A stretch of 64,000 nucleotides of DNA from Syntrophaceae bacterium (GTDB lineage: Bacteria > Desulfobacterota > BSN033 > UBA1163), in assembly GCA_013388645.1 (NCBI GenBank), contig JACAEV010000140.1:9700-73699 (forward strand). Reading direction: 5' to 3'. Under the pieces are notes generated by a model that made no database searches, was not told where the DNA came from, and saw nothing but the letters and a program-made list of their open reading frames with translations. The position numbers were made by a program, and so were the translations under genes. Position 1 is the stretch's first letter, and the number at the start of each line of letters is the position of its first letter. Shown one piece after another: positions 35,551-45,631 of this stretch.

Positions 35551-35621
35551 TTTTTTTGGCTGTGCCCGAAGGTTAATGCCTTTTTGCCTTGCAAAGTTAT
35601 TCAACGAAAGGAGGATTCGTT

Positions 35622-36200
35622 ATGGCAAAACAAATTCAATGGGAAACTTCACTCACGACGGCTAAGGGTAAGGCAAAGAAAGAGAGAAAACTGATTTTGA
35701 TGGACTTTTATAACAATCTCTGAATTGGGTGCCAACAGCTGGCAGCTGTTACTTATCCCGATTCGAATGTTTGTGCATCGGTAGAAAATAATTTCATCCC
35801 ACTTCAAATCGATTTCAACAAGAACAAAGCCCTGGTAAAACGATTTAGCGTTAAATGGACTCCCACTGTTGCCATTTTAGATTCGGAGGGCGAGGAGCAC
35901 CATCGTTTTGTCGGATATCTTCCTCCGGAGGATTTCATTGCACAGATCCTTCTCGGCAAGGGGAAGGTTGAATTCAATCTTGATCGCTTCGAACAATCCA
36001 TACAGTGTTTCCTGGAAGTTCTCGTTCGCTATTCCAAAACAGATGCCGCGCCTGAGGCACAATACTATCTCGGTGTTGCCAAGTATAAAGCAACCCATGA
36101 TCCCAAACAATTGAAATTGGGATTGGAGGTGCTGCAAAGGGATTATCCGAATAGCGAGTGGACTAAGAAGGCCCAGGTATACGGACTGATTCCTGGGTAG
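35622..36200 (+). CDS. Thioredoxin-fold selenoprotein with UxxC redox motif (in-frame TGA 35721..35723 read as selenocysteine)
   Basis: RBS AAAGGAGG precedes ATG 35622. The ORF reaches TGA at codon 34, at the exact position of the first Cys of a thioredoxin-like CxxC motif (DFYNNL-U-IGCQQ). The same frame then runs 159 codons without any Met to TAG 36198..36200. A stem-loop AACAGC/UGGCA/GCUGUU begins 10 nt after the TGA. Confidence 0.6.
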
Positions 36201-36222: not shown

Positions 36223-37041
36223 TTAATGGATAGAAAATCGCCAGGCACAGTACCAATCTGGACGGGGAGGATCAGGAGGGCATCCCAAACATTCTGTCTG
36301 AATCCGAGAATCGATGGTCGCTGCAAAAGTTCGGTACTCAATGATGCCGATGGATTTGCAAGGATAATCTTCTAAGCCTTTGAGCCTGCGGGAAGCCTGG
36401 ACCCGACAGTCGATCATGCGGAAGACAAAGGAGTCCGATTTTTCTTCCACGAAATCCTGTTTATTGATACGGGCGTATAACCGAAATTGAAGTGCTGTTT
36501 TGAGAGCATCCAATCCACCCTGTTGTGGCAAGTCCAATAGGGTTTTGATATGGTAAGCTTCATAAGGAGAAAATCGGGTCCAGCAGGTATCATTACATCG
36601 TTTTGCATCAAAAATTCCAAACTTTTTTTCAACAGTCTGGAACCATACTCCGTCATTGGCCAACCAATTGAGGGCAAGGGAATCTAAGAGCTCATTCAAC
36701 TGATTTTCGTCCATCCGATATAAAACCGCTGGTATTCCTTGTTGTAGTTCAATGTTGAGAAGTTTAGCAACCCGTTTCAATTGAATTGCTAAACTGGTTG
36801 CCCCAACCTCTTTTTCCATCTCAAGGGCAACTTCCATTCCATATTGGTACTCCACTTCCTTGAGCCAATAACCATAATGAACCAGAGTACGCCAAAAGGC
36901 ATCTAAAATCCAACGAATCAGAAATTCCTTTTCAAGTTTTGTCGATAATTCCATTCTCTTTTTATTCTCCTCCATTTCCTCTCTCTTTTTCTGTTCGCCA
37001 AGGTCATTCAGAATGATAAAGCAGAGGTGACACCATGGCAA
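36223..37041 (-). CDS. Hypothetical protein with C-terminal Cys-rich region
   Basis: Track ORF; last gene of a minus-strand operon. Start uncertain (overlaps the upstream gene by 34 nt). Confidence 0.35.
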   Translation of the reverse strand: MPWCHLCFIILNDLGEQKKREEMEENKKRMELSTKLEKEFLIRWILDAFWRTLVHYGYWLKEVEYQYGMEVALEMEKEVGATSLAIQLKRVAKLLNIELQQGIPAVLYRMDENQLNELLDSLALNWLANDGVWFQTVEKKFGIFDAKRCNDTCWTRFSPYEAYHIKTLLDLPQQGGLDALKTALQFRLYARINKQDFVEEKSDSFVFRMIDCRVQASRRLKGLEDYPCKSIGIIEYRTFAATIDSRIQTECLGCPPDPPRPDWYCAWRFSIH

Positions 37042-37670
37042 CGGGAAGCCGTGCTGATCAATATTAGCCGGTTTGACTTTTTCTTTTTTTTAATATCCTC
37101 CAACAAGTCCAACAGCGCTTTGGTTCGAAATCCTCCCACTCCTGGGCCGAGTTGTTCACTTCGGATTACCATTGATTCAAAAGGCCCTCTCAAATCTTTT
37201 AAAATCTGATAAAGAGGTTTTTCACGCCTTTTCCCGGTTGCCGTGCAATATCGAGAAGGTTCCGGGCAATCTTCAGAACATAAGAAATCAGCAAGGCTGG
37301 TATAGAGATCGCCTGTTTTGCCTATCATGGGGTTGGGCAATCCAGGAAGGGCAGGGACTTTAATCCTTTTGGCCCCGATAGGTTTCAGCTGGGATAAAAT
37401 GAATTCGAAAGCAAAGTGAAGGGGGAGGGCAGCGATAATATAGTCGGCCTTTAAACCTTTTGATAAAAATTGATTTAGATAGAGTATCCCGTCACAGACT
37501 GCAGTTTGAATTGGAAGCCGAGAGACTTTTTGGAGTGCCTTTTTATTTTTATCAACAACGATGATTCTTGAACGAGCATTTTTTTGAGAGAGTTTTTCTG
37601 CAGCCCGGCCTCCAAAACGGCCACATCCGATGATGAGGAATGAAGGTGAACGATTAGAATAAGACATCAA
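37008..37670 (-). CDS. Rossmann-fold NAD(P)-binding protein (TrkA-N-like GxGxxG) with C-terminal CxxxCx6C cluster
   Basis: FLIIGCGRFGGRAAEKL dinucleotide-binding fold and FLCSEDCPEPSRYC Cys motif. Function unknown. Confidence 0.4.
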   Translation of the reverse strand: MMSYSNRSPSFLIIGCGRFGGRAAEKLSQKNARSRIIVVDKNKKALQKVSRLPIQTAVCDGILYLNQFLSKGLKADYIIAALPLHFAFEFILSQLKPIGAKRIKVPALPGLPNPMIGKTGDLYTSLADFLCSEDCPEPSRYCTATGKRREKPLYQILKDLRGPFESMVIRSEQLGPGVGGFRTKALLDLLEDIKKKKKSNRLILISTASRCHGVTSALSF

Positions 37671-37709: not shown

Positions 37710-38753
37710 CTACCTCTGTGAAAAGGTGTCCCATGCGGACTTCTTTCCAGCGGAAACCATCGCACGTATATTCTCAGGGGGCGCATTGACAGGGACCGTG
37801 CAACCTGAGGATAAGATGTAATTCCCCTTCGTGCCTGCAACCGATATCATCAGACGCAAACTTTCTTTTTCCACTTTCTCTGGATTTCCGAATACTAATA
37901 CATCGGTTGGATCAAGATTGCCCATCAGACCAATGTCCTCCCCCAGAATCTTTCGGGCTTCATCCATATTAACTTTACTATCCAAACTTAAACAGTCCAC
38001 CCCCGTCCCCATCATTGTTTCCAGTCGGTCAGTGGTATCACCGCATATGTGCATAATGATTTTAGCTCCCAACTTCTTAAGAGCGGAGACAACCTTAGTT
38101 GTATAGGGTTGGGCGAAAGTCATCCATATTTTAGAGGAGATCACATCACCGGATGACATGGGATCTGAAATGAAAAGGACATCCGCCCCGGCATGAAGGA
38201 GAGCTGTTCCCCAAACGATTTGAGTGGATACACAAAGTTCTAATAGGTCTTTTACAGATTGGGGACTTTTATAAACGTCTGTTAAAATTTTATCAGGACT
38301 TCGAAGCATGGAGGCATGTCGAAAAGGAGCTTGAAGATAACCTAAAACCGGGATCTCCTTTCCGACTTTTCCCTTAAGCAGATATATCCCTTCTAATACA
38401 ATTGGCATACGGCCATCCTTGTATGGGTCAGGGATTTTAAGCTTTGGAAGATCTTTCTTATAGTCCTTTATTGCGAACTCGATGACGGAGGGGAACGCAT
38501 CTTCCGGGAACTTTAGCTTTGATCCCATAGCCTCAGACTCACAGTGAATGCCTCCAAGGTCTCGCACCATGTCATAATCAAATTCCTGAACGCAGAGGTA
38601 TTGAGAATGGGCATACTTGCTTGCATCAAGAATAGCCTCATAAGCTTTAAATCCAGCTTGACGCACACACCACTCCCTCACGAGAGGAAATACTGGAATT
38701 CTATCAGGTTTCTGTCCATCCAAAACAGACATAATTCTTTCGTAAGAATTCAT
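37710..38753 (-). CDS. Uroporphyrinogen decarboxylase (URO-D) superfamily protein, MtaA/MtbA-like methyltransferase type
   Basis: DRIPVFPLVREWCV N-terminus and overall URO-D fold motifs. Confidence 0.7.
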   Translation of the reverse strand: MNSYERIMSVLDGQKPDRIPVFPLVREWCVRQAGFKAYEAILDASKYAHSQYLCVQEFDYDMVRDLGGIHCESEAMGSKLKFPEDAFPSVIEFAIKDYKKDLPKLKIPDPYKDGRMPIVLEGIYLLKGKVGKEIPVLGYLQAPFRHASMLRSPDKILTDVYKSPQSVKDLLELCVSTQIVWGTALLHAGADVLFISDPMSSGDVISSKIWMTFAQPYTTKVVSALKKLGAKIIMHICGDTTDRLETMMGTGVDCLSLDSKVNMDEARKILGEDIGLMGNLDPTDVLVFGNPEKVEKESLRLMISVAGTKGNYILSSGCTVPVNAPPENIRAMVSAGKKSAWDTFSQR

Positions 38754-38769: not shown

Positions 38770-39284
38770 TCAATCGTCTATTTTCCTACTTTCATTCCGG
38801 AGTCTTAAAATAATCTCTGAAGCGATCTTGGCAGCAATTCCACAAACTTCTGGACATCCCTTTCGACTATGGCCACCCATACTGTGAAAGTTCTCTCTTT
38901 CCTCCGGGATATGCATCCGATAAACTTTTCCAAATCGGATTCGATGAATTTCTTGACACAAGGTATGACCTATTTTCTCCTTGAATTTTGCGAACATTTC
39001 CATGGCGGGCTCCATCGCCTTCTGATATTGCTCCTTGTCCTCAAGTTTTTCGCGCCCAACGACTGTACCGATTGCCATCAATGAACCCAATAAAGCACCA
39101 CAGGTCTCGCCCTGGCGAGCAACGCCACCTGCGAGGGTGCTTGCGGATTTAAAAACCTCTTTATTCCCAATTTGTAATTTCTCTTGCAAAGCTGCAAGAA
39201 CGGATTGGCTTCACCCAAAATAATCCATATCATATTGAAGGGCCAATTTAAAAATTTCTTCGGCTAGATGGTTTTCTTTTTCCA
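38770..39284 (-). CDS. C_GCAxxG_C_C-family putative redox protein, selenocysteine-containing variant (in-frame TGA at 39210..39212, minus strand)
   Basis: Minus-strand ATG at 39284 with RBS GAGGTGA gives MEKENHLAEEIFKLALQYDMDYFG-TGA-SQSVLAAL... The TGA replaces the conserved first Cys, and ETCGALLG plus the C-terminal GCPEVCG complete the family signature. A hairpin UUCUUGCA/GCUU/UGCAAGAA starts 10 nt after the TGA. Frame continuity across a T-homopolymer near 39178..39182 follows the ORF track, which implies one more T than I count in the printed text. Confidence 0.5.
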
Positions 39285-39437
39285 TTCATCACCTCGGCTG
39301 GGGCGGAGTATAAAACCCTTGACTTCATTAATATTTGTTCCCAACTTCGTACTATTCGTAATTAAAAAAAAAGATATTGTCAAGAAGCCAAATTAAAATC
39401 AAAAAAAGCGCTTGACTTTTTTAGAGGATGAATTAAA

Positions 39438-39457: not shown

Positions 39458-39500
39458 ATTTTAAAAAGCATTTAAATTGATAAGGACAAAAATTAGGAAG

Positions 39501-40304
39501 ATGTATTCCTTTAAAGCGATCAAAAAAGATTCATTATCTCAGCGGATAGAAAAAGATATCAAAAACGCAATCGCCTCTCGAATTTATAAACCTCTTGAAA
39601 AATTGCCTTCCGAAAGGGATCTTATGGGTCAATTCAATGTCAGTCGTACCACCATCCGGGAGGCTTTAATGAGTTTACAGAGCAGCGGTTTGATTTTTGT
39701 AAAAAGAGGAATGAATGCAGGCGCCTATGTAGCTGAGATCAATCCGGATCCAATCACAGAGAATTTTCAAAACCTGATTAAATTTGGAAAGATTAACTTT
39801 GTTCATCTTACAGAGGCACGGTTATATATCGAACCCGAAGCTGCCAGAATTGCAGCCATTTGCAGATCAGAGAAAGATCTTGCGACACTTAACGAGCTCC
39901 TGGCAAAAGCCGAGGCCAGTAATCAGACTTCAGTCAAAGAGGCGCGCTTGATCAATGTCCGTTTCCATGTGGAAGTTGCAAAGGTTACTCAAAATCCGAT
40001 TATCATTTTTATCTCAGAGTCCGTCACACAAGTCTTTTCGGCAGGTCTGATTGAGCGGACGAAACTCAGTAAAGCGGATGTGTTGAAAAATATTGATGCC
40101 CATCGATATATCTTGGATTCGATCATTCGAAAGGATGAAAAAGAAGCCTATGAAAGAGCCAAGAGCCATATTTTAGGGGTTTACCATACCTATCGCCGGA
40201 TTATCCCTAACGTTCCCCGAAGCGATATCAGGGGACTCGAAAACCGGTTGGGGGATTTTAAAAAGGACGGAAAAGGCAAATCCAGGGTGACTTTCAGGGG
40301 ATGA
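39501..40304 (+). CDS. GntR/FadR-family transcriptional regulator
   Basis: LPSERDLMGQFNVSRTTIREALMSLQSSGLIFVKRGMNAGAYVA winged HTH and an FCD-like C-terminal domain. ATG 39501 is in frame with the TTG-initiated track ORF. Confidence 0.75.
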   Translation: MYSFKAIKKDSLSQRIEKDIKNAIASRIYKPLEKLPSERDLMGQFNVSRTTIREALMSLQSSGLIFVKRGMNAGAYVAEINPDPITENFQNLIKFGKINFVHLTEARLYIEPEAARIAAICRSEKDLATLNELLAKAEASNQTSVKEARLINVRFHVEVAKVTQNPIIIFISESVTQVFSAGLIERTKLSKADVLKNIDAHRYILDSIIRKDEKEAYERAKSHILGVYHTYRRIIPNVPRSDIRGLENRLGDFKKDGKGKSRVTFRG

Positions 40305-42968: not shown

Positions 42969-44414
42969 GTGACTCGTAAGGCATCTCCTGAAGTAACGAA
43001 ATTGGTGGATGAATTGGCAACGATTGTAACTAAGAAATATGTGTCAGCTCATATTTTTGAGAGGATAAAAAGTTCAATCGATACCTTTCCTTATGAAGCA
43101 GAGAAAGAGAATCTGCCCTATGCGATTGTGATGCCAAAATCGAAGAACGAGGTTAGTGAGATTTTGAAGTATGCCAATCGAAGAGAAATCCCTGTATTTA
43201 TCCGAGGGTCAGGGACTTCTTTTACCGGTGCTTCACGGTACCATATTCCAGGCATCGTCATCAACACACATCGAATGAATGACATAGAAGTCTTTGAAGA
43301 CTTTGGTTTTTTTGAATGCGGACCAGGATGTATTTGTGAATCAGTAGCGAAGGAGATCGAAACGCGAGGTTACTTCCTTCCATTTGCCCCTGGCAGTCGA
43401 TTAATTGCAAGCATGGGTGGATTAATTGCCAATAATACCAGCGCTCATATCGTCGATGCCAGTGTTGGAAAGCCTGGGGATTATGTGCTTGGCCTCGAAG
43501 TGGTGCTTCCAAATGGGGAGATCATAGAGACGGGAACGAAAGGGTTACGAAGACCAGCGGGCACGGACTTGACCAAGTGGTTTGTAGGAGGGGATGGACT
43601 TTTAGGTGTGGTGACCAGGATCCGGATGAGACTTGCCCCCGCATTTGAAAGGGCCTATGGGATTGCGATTTACCAAGATCTCAAATCCCTCGCAAAGGGT
43701 GTTCAGAGAATATATAGGGAGAGGCGGCCCCTTCCTTTATTTATGGAATTTATGGAGAAGGAGACCGCTAAAATTGGATATAAGATTAAGGGGCTTGAAA
43801 TTCCAAAAGGATCGGTCATTCTGTTTGTGAGCACAGGAAATTCAAAAGAGGAGGCCTCTCAGAAGGCCGAACAGATATTGAGTTCGCTACGTGCTGAGAA
43901 TCCGATGGAGGCCCAACTCATTAAAGATATCGAGTTATGGGAAAAACTTTGGTCATCTCGTGAAGTGATTGGGTCTTACCTCATGCAAGAAAGCGGAAAT
44001 CAATGGTCTTCTGCCGAAGTGGTCTCCAATCTCATGGAACTTGAAGCGTGTATGGAGGATGCGTCCCATTTCAATCAAGATTTACCGGTGCTCAGCCAAT
44101 TGACTCTCTATCTGTTTGGACACATTGGAGGTTTGACGATGCACCCTGGTGTGATCATCCCTAAAGAATGGGATAATGAGAAAAAGAAGAGGGCGGTTGA
44201 TGAGAAATTTCAGAGAGAGGCTGAATTAAATCTAAAGTATCATACCTGTGGCGGGGAGTGGGGCCAATTTGCGAAACGGGCGCCCTTTTTTATCATGCGG
44301 TATGGAGAAGAGAGTTATGAATTGATGAAGAAAATTAAGAAAACTTTTGATCCCAATAATATACTCAATCCGGGAGTTTTGGAGGGGGACTTCAACAATA
44401 AGGAGAATGGATGA
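42969..44414 (+). CDS. FAD-linked oxidase (GlcD / D-lactate dehydrogenase-like FAD-binding subunit)
   Basis: FAD_binding_4 motifs VFIRGSGTSFTGAS and GGDGLLGVVTRIRMRL. GTG start. Confidence 0.75.
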   Translation: MTRKASPEVTKLVDELATIVTKKYVSAHIFERIKSSIDTFPYEAEKENLPYAIVMPKSKNEVSEILKYANRREIPVFIRGSGTSFTGASRYHIPGIVINTHRMNDIEVFEDFGFFECGPGCICESVAKEIETRGYFLPFAPGSRLIASMGGLIANNTSAHIVDASVGKPGDYVLGLEVVLPNGEIIETGTKGLRRPAGTDLTKWFVGGDGLLGVVTRIRMRLAPAFERAYGIAIYQDLKSLAKGVQRIYRERRPLPLFMEFMEKETAKIGYKIKGLEIPKGSVILFVSTGNSKEEASQKAEQILSSLRAENPMEAQLIKDIELWEKLWSSREVIGSYLMQESGNQWSSAEVVSNLMELEACMEDASHFNQDLPVLSQLTLYLFGHIGGLTMHPGVIIPKEWDNEKKKRAVDEKFQREAELNLKYHTCGGEWGQFAKRAPFFIMRYGEESYELMKKIKKTFDPNNILNPGVLEGDFNNKENG

Positions 44415-45631
44415 ATCAAAGGAAGGTGGCCAGAGATCTTCACAGCATAGATGAAGAAGAATATATTGAGGATTTAAAGGGAATTATCCTTGATGCCGCA
44501 AAGAGGTGCAGGAACTGCAATTATTGTTTTACGATTTGTCCTTTGTTCCATTCGACACGCGGGTTTATGAGTCAAACTCCTTCTGGCATTATGCAATCGA
44601 TCAACTATGCCTTAAAATGGGACGTCTTTAAGGGAGAAGATCAAGAAATTTTACGAGATCTTTTGTATCTTTGTACGACATGTAACGGATGTGTTCTACG
44701 ATGCAAATCCAAAGCAACGGGGCTCCCCGTTTTAGATGCAATCGAGGCGGGAAGAAAATTATTGAGGGAGATGATGATTGGCCCTCTCCCACAACAGAGA
44801 AAACCTCTAAAAGATATCTATTTATATGGCAATCCCTATGGGGAAAAGCCTGAGAGAAGAGTCGATTGGACGAAGGGATTGAAGGTGAAAATAATCCCTC
44901 CCGAGAGAGCAGAGGTTTTATTTTATGTGGGATGTACCACTGCCTACGAACCTAGCCTGCATCTGATAGGAAAAAGTCTGGTCAGACTGCTTCAATCCCT
45001 TCATGTCGATTTTGGAATTTTAAACGAAGAGGTTTGCTGTGGGGAACCTGCCAGAAGGATGGGGGATGAGGGTCTATTTCAAGAAATGATGAACCGAAAC
45101 CTCGATCAATTTAAGAGTTATGGCATAAAAACGATCGTATCCATCTCACCCCATTGTTTTAATACTTTCTTGAATGAATATCCAACCATCCAGGAGGAGA
45201 TAAAAATTCAACATTACACAGAGTTCTTGGCAGAGGCATTCAAAGGGAAGAAGCCATTGTTCAAGAAAGAAATCTCCTCTGTCATTACCTATCATGACCC
45301 CTGTTACCTTGGTAAACATAATCAGATTTTCAACGCCCCGAGGGAACTTTTGCAGATGATCCCTGGGGTGAAATTGGTTGAGATGAAGATGACAAGGGAA
45401 GAGAGTCTCTGTTGTGGGGGCGGAGGGGGAAGAATGTTTGCCGAGGTGGAGGAGGAACGAAGGTTATCCGATATGCGAATCACTCAAGCTCTGGAGGCCG
45501 GGGCAAATATCATTGCCACCGCGTGTCCTTGGTGTTACAAAATGCTCCAAAATTCGATTCAGGATTCTAATCTCGAGGATAAGATAAGGGCTAAAGATAT
45601 CTCAATCATTTTAAGTGAAGCCTTGAATTGA
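44411..45631 (+). CDS. Fe-S oxidoreductase with two 4Fe-4S motifs and two CCG domains (GlcF/LutA/HdrD-like)
   Basis: CRNCNYCFTICP and CTTCNGCVLRC ferredoxin motifs. CCGEPA and CCGGGGG cysteine-rich CCG domains. Overlaps the FAD oxidase gene by 4 nt. Confidence 0.75.
   Translation: MNQRKVARDLHSIDEEEYIEDLKGIILDAAKRCRNCNYCFTICPLFHSTRGFMSQTPSGIMQSINYALKWDVFKGEDQEILRDLLYLCTTCNGCVLRCKSKATGLPVLDAIEAGRKLLREMMIGPLPQQRKPLKDIYLYGNPYGEKPERRVDWTKGLKVKIIPPERAEVLFYVGCTTAYEPSLHLIGKSLVRLLQSLHVDFGILNEEVCCGEPARRMGDEGLFQEMMNRNLDQFKSYGIKTIVSISPHCFNTFLNEYPTIQEEIKIQHYTEFLAEAFKGKKPLFKKEISSVITYHDPCYLGKHNQIFNAPRELLQMIPGVKLVEMKMTREESLCCGGGGGRMFAEVEEERRLSDMRITQALEAGANIIATACPWCYKMLQNSIQDSNLEDKIRAKDISIILSEALN

Follow-up and report, generated by a model that had tools for sequence, protein, structure and literature searches.

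We analysed a 64,000-nucleotide window from the genome of a Syntrophaceae bacterium (GenBank assembly GCA_013388645.1, contig JACAEV010000140.1, positions 9,700 to 73,699 of the forward strand), which contains a minus-strand gene of the C_GCAxxG_C_C family whose reading frame is interrupted by an internal UGA codon. Translation of the minus strand from position 39285 to position 38770 gave a single open frame; counting the putative selenocysteine (Sec) codon, it comprises 171 sense codons. The sole internal stop of this frame is the TGA at codon 25 (plus-strand 39211..39213), and the final stop is another TGA at 38772..38770. The ATG at 39285..39283 begins a peptide that reads MEKENHLAEEIFKLALQYDMDYFG-U-SQSVLAALQEKLQIGNKEVF, and it is preceded by the sequence GAGGTGA at 39295..39289. 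A first-pass annotation of the window, made from the letters alone, had named this ribosome-binding site, the start that gives MEKENHLAEEIFKLALQYDMDYFG and the in-frame TGA, but it placed the ATG at 39284 and the TGA at 39210..39212, each off by one nucleotide; translation begun at 39284 follows a different, stop-ridden frame. It had also raised the concern that a T homopolymer at about 39178..39182 might break the frame. This concern proved unfounded, as the frame is intact and a run of five T residues at 39151..39155 encodes E-V-F-K, a peptide that is kept in homologues. The program-made list of open reading frames (ORFs) shows only the TTG-initiated remnant 38770..39189, exactly as the annotation had reported. 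The TTG is the Leu codon at +8 after the UGA and lies inside the hairpin described below. Because the ORF caller stops at UGA, we regard this shorter ORF as an artefact.

The full-length product, with U read as C, was compared with curated profiles of the family. It matched Pfam PF09719 (C_GCAxxG_C_C) with an E-value of 4.3e-25 and a score of 88.5 bits, residues 24-158 aligning with positions 2-118 of the 118-position profile, and it matched NCBIfam TIGR01909 with 66.9 bits. Both scores exceed the curated cut-offs (27 bits for PF09719 and 47.4 bits for TIGR01909), which bears out the family assignment made in the first pass; the curated name of TIGR01909 is "C-GCAxxG-C-C family (seleno)protein". 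The short TTG-initiated ORF scored 72 bits against PF09719 and covered profile positions 12-118 only, such that the N-terminal extension widens the match to positions 2-118.

We then located the UGA with respect to the conserved cysteines. In an alignment of 114 diverse family representatives, C62 was the only invariant column, while C25, C110 and C144 were nearly invariant, each being at least 90% conserved. The UGA occupies position 25, i.e. the first among the four family cysteines (U25, C62, C110 and C144), as had been claimed, and orthologues that use Cys have C at this position. The second cysteine lies in the motif E-T-C62-G-A-L-L-G, the third in HTLCQEI and the fourth in KGCPEV. The GCAxxG signature read in the first pass is therefore present as the second-Cys motif, but in the form T-C-G-A-L-L-G (CGAxxG). 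Likewise, both C-terminal cysteines of the reported GCPEVCG segment are present, but only the first of them (C144) is conserved family-wide; C148 is conserved within the subfamily only. Close homologues from a protein search fell into two groups. Full-length homologues of ~166 aa show C or W in the UGA column, W reflecting a gene caller that read TGA as Trp, and proteins of ~134 aa start just past the UGA. Several public entries (P0001, P0002, P0007, P0009, P0014 and others) are either cut after the UGA, at 128-142 aa, or carry the UGA as Trp, which amounts to systematic mis-annotation.

Conservation of the UGA was examined in DNA from 10 genome loci and 80 metagenome loci. The genome loci came from Syntrophaceae, other Thermodesulfobacteriota metagenome-assembled genomes (MAGs) and two NC10/Methylomirabilis MAGs, and the metagenome loci were the 80 best of at least 540. 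Ninety sequences, comprising 89 loci and the window, were classified at the Sec position. The codon was TGA in 84, TGT in 5 and TGC in 1. TGA was found at 10/10 genome loci and at 73 of the 79 classified metagenome loci, the remaining six having TGT or TGC. As these loci were sampled regardless of form, the proportion of 84/90 suggests that the subfamily uses Sec near-exclusively. A Sec-containing member with the hairpin is also present in the two NC10 MAGs (Candidatus Methylomirabilis; L006 and L007), outside Thermodesulfobacteriota.

The peptide of ~24 residues that precedes the TGA was conserved in 10/10 genome loci. Among 80 distinct TGA sequences, Ala -10 and Gly -1 were invariant (80/80), and each was encoded by all four of its codons. 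Because the amino acids are kept while silent sites vary, the 24 codons upstream of the UGA are translated in frame, and the same pattern indicates purifying selection on both flanks of the UGA. TGA also serves as a regular stop in the window, where it ends 12 of the 43 long ORFs, including the selenoprotein gene itself. Given this ordinary use of TGA as a stop, a reassigned code does not explain the pattern. We conclude that the internal UGA of this gene most likely encodes selenocysteine.

A hairpin resembling a bacterial selenocysteine insertion sequence (SECIS) follows the UGA within the coding region. It consists of the 5' arm UUCUUGCA (39200..39193), the loop GCUU (39192..39189) and the 3' arm UGCAAGAG (39188..39181), which form an 8-bp stem with an outer U-G pair and a 4-nt loop. 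The hairpin starts 10 nt past the UGA, with its loop 18 nt past the UGA, and it encodes (V)LAALQE. Its calculated energy was -8.0 to -8.8 kcal/mol (centroid -8.8). The first-pass annotation had described the hairpin, its GCUU loop and its spacing correctly; only its last base is G rather than A, hence the outer U-G pair. Published rules for bacterial SECIS (bSECIS) elements call for a 4-16 bp stem closed by a loop of 3-9 nt, a UGA-to-loop distance of 16-37 nt, a G within the first two loop positions and an energy <= -7.5 kcal/mol (PMC13188914, section 5). The hairpin satisfies all four published rules, and the preferred G[G/U] dinucleotide is absent. With a simple implementation of these rules, conforming hairpins followed 46 of the 2,544 UGA triplets in the window (1.8%). 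Only 1.1% of 9,216 synonymous recodings of VLAALQE folded as well as the observed sequence.

Codon usage within the stem was essentially frozen. Among the 80 distinct TGA sequences, Val +4 was GTT in 80/80, Leu +5 was CTT in 80/80 and Leu +8 was TTG or CTG in 80/80, while Ala +6 was GCA in 77/80 and GCG, which retains a G-U pair, in 3/80. By contrast, other codons for Val, Leu, Ala and Gly up to 40 codons away used 3 to 6 synonyms each in the same sequences. Stem pairs 2-8 were unbroken in 63 distinct Sec regions, the only changes being U-A to U-G and A-U to G-U. The hairpin offers a clean example of a putative SECIS element whose two arms are tied to a conserved peptide, VLAALQE, in a helix-coding stretch.

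The window contains a second candidate selenoprotein gene at 35619..36197 on the plus strand, with TGA at 35721..35723. It lies ~3 kb from the C_GCAxxG_C_C gene and is convergent with the DUF6125 gene listed in Table 1. The predicted product is thioredoxin-like, with the motif L-U-I-G-C (UxxC) and a TPR-like C-terminal half, and with U read as C it matched Pfam Thioredoxin_2 at 7.8e-14. Here, too, a hairpin begins 10 nt past the UGA; it has a 7-bp stem and a GGC loop. The spacing is the same as at codon 25 of the C_GCAxxG_C_C gene, as the first-pass annotation had pointed out. This gene provides indirect support for the presence of Sec machinery in the genome, and would place at least two selenoproteins within 4 kb of a Syntrophaceae-type genome. 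The Logan contig calls the same region as two unrelated small genes.

The features of the locus and the neighbouring genes are given in Table 1. The MtaA-like gene begins 16 nt beyond the selenoprotein stop (at 38753). The order of the four minus-strand genes and the divergent GntR/TAXI/PrpD arrangement recur in the closest relatives (L001, L002 and L011-L013; 82-87% identical). The arrangement was absent in orthologues of ~65-70% identity, where neighbourhoods were varied, and a neighbour search over the loci found no neighbour common to the whole subfamily. The description of the gene as heading an operon therefore holds for the window and its close relatives, but it is not a property of the family. 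We infer co-transcription of this closely packed four-gene unit. A scan of the locus for promoters and terminators was uninformative.

Table 1. Coordinates of features at the C_GCAxxG_C_C locus (positions in the window)
Feature	Coordinates	Strand	Basis or remark
Predicted selenoprotein coding sequence, C_GCAxxG_C_C family	38770..39285	-	Continuous frame; PF09719, E 4.3e-25; N-terminal 24 residues kept in 10/10 genome loci
UGA codon 25, predicted to be read as selenocysteine	39211..39213	-	Aligns with the family's first conserved Cys; TGA in 84/90 sequences
Shine-Dalgarno-like site GAGGTGA	39289..39295	-	Sequence read directly; upstream of ATG 39285
Spacer from UGA to hairpin, AGCCAAUCCG	39201..39210	-	10 nt; constant length, 23 sequence forms among Sec genes
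Putative bacterial SECIS hairpin, UUCUUGCA-GCUU-UGCAAGAG	39181..39200	-	Folding, silent-site conservation and published bSECIS rules
TTG-initiated short ORF	38770..39189	-	Mechanical ORF calling; matches only PF09719 positions 12-118
URO-D superfamily, MtaA/CmuA-like methyltransferase (second gene)	37710..38753	-	PF01208, 1e-77; TIGR01463, 4e-66 (slightly below curated cut-off)
TrkA_N-like nucleotide-binding protein with AF_1314_C domain (third gene)	37008..37670	-	
DUF6125 protein (fourth gene)	36223..37041	-	Likely true start further downstream; 250 aa call on Logan contig
GntR/FCD-family regulator	39477..40304	+	Divergent; followed by TAXI-TRAP binding protein and MmgE/PrpD genes

Other neighbourhoods were recorded as well. 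The commonest neighbour of distant orthologues was an upstream DUF169 (COG2043) gene, found at 14 loci among L011-L090, on the same strand in 13/14 and ~955 nt upstream (e.g. L080, 284..1072). At L095 (815..4149) and L096, a Cys-form orthologue stands beside a divergent MmgE/PrpD gene and is followed by two Sulf_transp (YeeE/YedE) genes. The MmgE/PrpD family of this neighbour also occurs in the divergent operon of the window, and the Sulf_transp (YeeE/YedE) family itself includes selenoprotein members. The divergent GntR/TAXI/PrpD/GlcD-like cluster of the window also contains a GlpC/TfrB-like Fe-S protein gene (44411..45631, plus strand), which gave a partial match to NF045663 "diclust_near_Sec" at 1.7e-23, far below the cut-off.

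Possible functions of the product were considered from structure prediction and remote homology. The AlphaFold model of P0003, a 70%-identical Cys orthologue, has a pLDDT of 89.3 and eight helices. Profiles of the close subfamily missed 1h21, and the profile of 114 diverse family members matched 1h21_A with an E-value of 1.5e-5, with the CGALxG segment and the helix of the fourth Cys aligned. The title of the 1h21 entry is "A novel iron centre". Abreu and co-workers are said to have described the iron centre of split-Soret cytochrome c, in 2003, as a Cys-ligated [2Fe-2S] cluster. The profile match links the family domain, by remote homology, to the domain of split-Soret cytochrome c that houses its non-haem iron centre. 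Two points count against a metal-ligand role: a Foldseek search of the model against the PDB found no solved relative, and the 1h21 alignment covers the second- and fourth-Cys segments only (2/4), such that the homology behind this role is weak and remote. Annotations of family members point in the same direction as the profile match. Geoglobus GAH_00301 is annotated as a C_GCAxxG_C_C protein with two haem motifs (PMC4600277), and "putative FeS cluster-binding" is an annotation given to the family (PMC8322314). Because of the 1h21 homology and these haem-motif and FeS annotations, we consider binding of a metal or Fe-S centre to be the most probable role of U25, C62, C110 and C144, the alternative being a selenosulfide redox couple.

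These results can be accommodated in the following model. Translation would begin at the ATG at 39285, and the UGA at codon 25 would be decoded as selenocysteine instead of acting as a stop. The coding-region hairpin 10 nt downstream would act as a bacterial SECIS element by recruiting SelB with Sec-tRNA(Sec) to the ribosome. The product would be a 171-residue all-alpha C_GCAxxG_C_C protein in which Sec takes the place of cysteine at the first of the four conserved positions, and selenium would tune the reactivity of the metal/Fe-S centre or selenosulfide. This selenoprotein would probably be the electron-transfer or redox partner in the four-gene unit, whose other members are the MtaA-like, TrkA_N-like and DUF6125 proteins. 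We infer actual Sec insertion at codon 25, and we consider the explanation as a whole, i.e. a Sec-decoded UGA, a SECIS hairpin, a metal or redox role and a position as first gene of the four-gene unit, to be very probable. A more specific proposal is speculative and rather improbable in our estimation: that Sec directly ligates a [2Fe-2S]-type or other metal centre within a stand-alone domain related to the split-Soret iron-centre domain, that the subfamily is near-obligately selenium-dependent and that, in Syntrophaceae, the protein is the dedicated redox partner of an MtaA-like/TrkA_N-like/DUF6125 system under GntR control.

Several observations weigh against Sec decoding directed by this hairpin. 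The 76-nt region folded no better than shuffled sequence (z = 0.31), and the hairpin alone is therefore not evidence; the decisive evidence is comparative. No Rfam SECIS family was matched, either in the whole window at gathering thresholds or in 39120..39300 at permissive E-values, where only chance hits were obtained. SECIS prediction on the minus strand was thus positive by the published bSECIS rules but not by the Rfam models. The G of the GCUU loop is followed by C, not by the commoner G or U, and the hairpin of homologue L006 has a UCUC loop without G. The stem showed no double compensatory changes among the 63 regions, and covariation support was limited to wobble-compatible changes, as both arms double as coding sequence for a conserved peptide. 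Finally, selA, selB, selC, selD and tRNA-Sec were not found in the 64-kb window by searches that included Rfam and a tRNA scan.

The fate of the hairpin in genes with Cys at the Sec position belongs among these points. The Cys set comprised six loci at first, and five more Cys lineages were fetched subsequently; eight lineages were compared. The hairpin was intact in 5/8 of them (L042, L091, L094, L095 and L097), where it read UUCUUGCA-NNNN-UGCARGAA with TGT or TGC at the Sec position, and it was weakened or broken in 3/8 (L014, the L018 group and L093). In L018 the stem-breaking silent changes are CTC for CTT combined with CTA for TTG. Two of the lineages with an intact hairpin, L042 (96% identity to a Sec form) and L097 (91%), are plainly recent Sec-to-Cys conversions. 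Two others, L091 and L094, have only ~70% nucleotide identity to the nearest sampled Sec form. The clear contrast between Sec and Cys forms that was seen with the first six Cys loci weakened after the five further lineages were included. In total, 0/63 Sec regions had broken stems, compared to 3/8 Cys lineages in which the stem was weakened or broken. Relaxation of the hairpin once Sec is lost is thus visible but not clean, and the test was weakly positive. Closer Sec ancestors of the Cys forms may exist among the 540 or more loci of which the best 80 were sampled. A hairpin that is kept in Cys forms could be a fossil SECIS element or could reflect a second constraint on the sequence.

The last point leads to an alternative in which the hairpin is not a SECIS element but is kept by mRNA stability, translation pausing or codon preference, with Sec being inserted via a different element. 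Its persistence in five of eight Cys-form lineages, two of them distant from any sampled Sec form, the lack of fully compensatory substitutions and the non-significant folding score of the region are all in favour of this explanation. However, the position, size, loop G and energy of the hairpin fit the bSECIS consensus, the window's second selenoprotein gene shows exactly this spacing, and its stem pairs are disrupted in Cys lineages only; moreover, the Sec forms came from the 80 best of at least 540 loci, so that genuine Sec ancestors of the Cys forms may have escaped sampling. We therefore consider a non-SECIS role unlikely, although it is the strongest of the alternatives. The UGA might also be read as another amino acid (Cys, Trp or Gly) via near-cognate decoding, a reassigned code or a variant Sec-type tRNA. 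Some public gene calls do write W, no Sec machinery turned up in the window and the hairpin persists in Cys forms. On the other hand, TGA ends 12/43 long ORFs, so no global reassignment has occurred, a UGA at a conserved-Cys position is the classic Sec/Cys pair, the hairpin conforms to the bSECIS rules and the family is a recognized selenoprotein family, which together make insertion of another amino acid very unlikely.

Termination at the UGA is an equally slim prospect. It would yield a 24-residue upstream peptide and a separate, shortened protein from the TTG at 39189 or nearby, which is what mechanical ORF calling returns (38770..39189), what the many database entries of 128-142 aa depict and what still scores above the Pfam threshold, with 72 bits. 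Such a protein would nevertheless be devoid of the first family cysteine and of profile positions 2-11, and its TTG lies inside the conserved helix and hairpin without a ribosome-binding site of its own. Furthermore, the 24 upstream codons are conserved as protein, in frame, across all loci, and the Cys-form orthologues are single continuous proteins. Conservation of the upstream codons and the use of TGA as a stop in other ORFs led us to reject both a short ORF translated on its own and a genome-wide reassignment of TGA. The least probable explanation, to which we give almost no weight, is that the gene is a pseudogene or that its TGA is a sequencing or assembly error from TGT or TGC. Only one base separates these codons and Cys forms do exist, but the TGA is shared by 83 independently assembled loci in addition to the window (from Syntrophaceae, other Thermodesulfobacteriota and NC10/Methylomirabilis), and purifying selection persists on both of its flanks; this recurrence and the selection on the flanks effectively refute it. 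Decoding of the UGA as selenocysteine, with the downstream hairpin as its SECIS element, is the reading that we retain.

Selenoproteins of this family have been described previously. Zhang & Gladyshev (2007, PMC1976440) were the first to report Sec-containing members, in the delta-1 symbiont of Olavius algarvensis; they named them "putative redox protein" and described SECIS-like hairpins as well as Cys homologues. Two reviews (PMC9312934 and PMC13188914) list the family's selenoproteins, with a distinction between forms 1 and 2 in the later one. None of these three sources specifies which Cys is replaced in form 1 or in form 2, and no motif is given in the reviews. The protein encoded in the window resembles the known C-GCAxxG-C-C (seleno)proteins in having the domain above both thresholds, four Cys positions of which one is replaced by UGA, a SECIS-like hairpin directly downstream and an anaerobic host of deltaproteobacterial type. 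It differs in that members of its subfamily, at ~165-170 aa, possess an additional helix at the N-terminus and a fifth Cys (C148) and are overwhelmingly Sec forms in the sampled loci; its operon partners (MtaA-like, TrkA_N-like and DUF6125) are undescribed for the family. The gene had been called a missed selenoprotein in the first pass. This is true of the ORF list and of several public annotations, but the family was already catalogued as a selenoprotein family.

The hairpin and the product can also be compared with other known systems. Like the bSECIS consensus (Zhang & Gladyshev, in PMC13188914), whose experimental prototype is that of E. coli fdhF, the hairpin is part of the coding sequence and directly follows the UGA. 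Its stem measures 8 bp, its loop of 4 nt opens with G and is 18 nt away from the UGA, and its energy is <= -7.5 kcal/mol. The loop G is followed by C here instead of G or U, and the hairpin has neither the bulged U nor the lower stem of the E. coli fdhF element. In split-Soret cytochrome c, the ligands are all Cys, a Tat signal is present and the C-terminal domain carries two c-type haems, whereas the protein described here would be a stand-alone cytoplasmic domain with Sec. The spacer between UGA and hairpin is 11 nt in E. coli fdhF, compared to 10 nt here. Sec at a conserved cysteine of the metal-ligand type in a redox protein of an anaerobe is also a feature of the CopZ-family (2Fe-2S)-binding selenoproteins (PMC13188914), HdrA and [NiFeSe] hydrogenase. 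The resemblance of the protein studied here to these proteins is one of functional analogy only.

From these data we conclude that the gene is a genuine, routinely mis-called selenoprotein gene of a family already known for selenoproteins, and in this respect it is ordinary. The current understanding of selenoprotein biology is unchanged. The annotation of the gene should be corrected from 139 to 171 codons, the product having a predicted selenocysteine at the family's first conserved cysteine, and the same truncation affects many public entries of the subfamily that are called at 128-142 aa. What is added is the near-exclusive use of Sec that the sampled loci suggest for the subfamily, a hairpin locked into a conserved peptide, a lineage-specific operon with MtaA-like and DUF6125 genes and a remote link to the iron-centre domain of split-Soret cytochrome c. 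This link provides a testable idea for a family of unknown function. If the more specific and rather improbable proposal made above were true, the protein would represent a selenium-dependent step in an undescribed methyl-transfer or organic-acid pathway.

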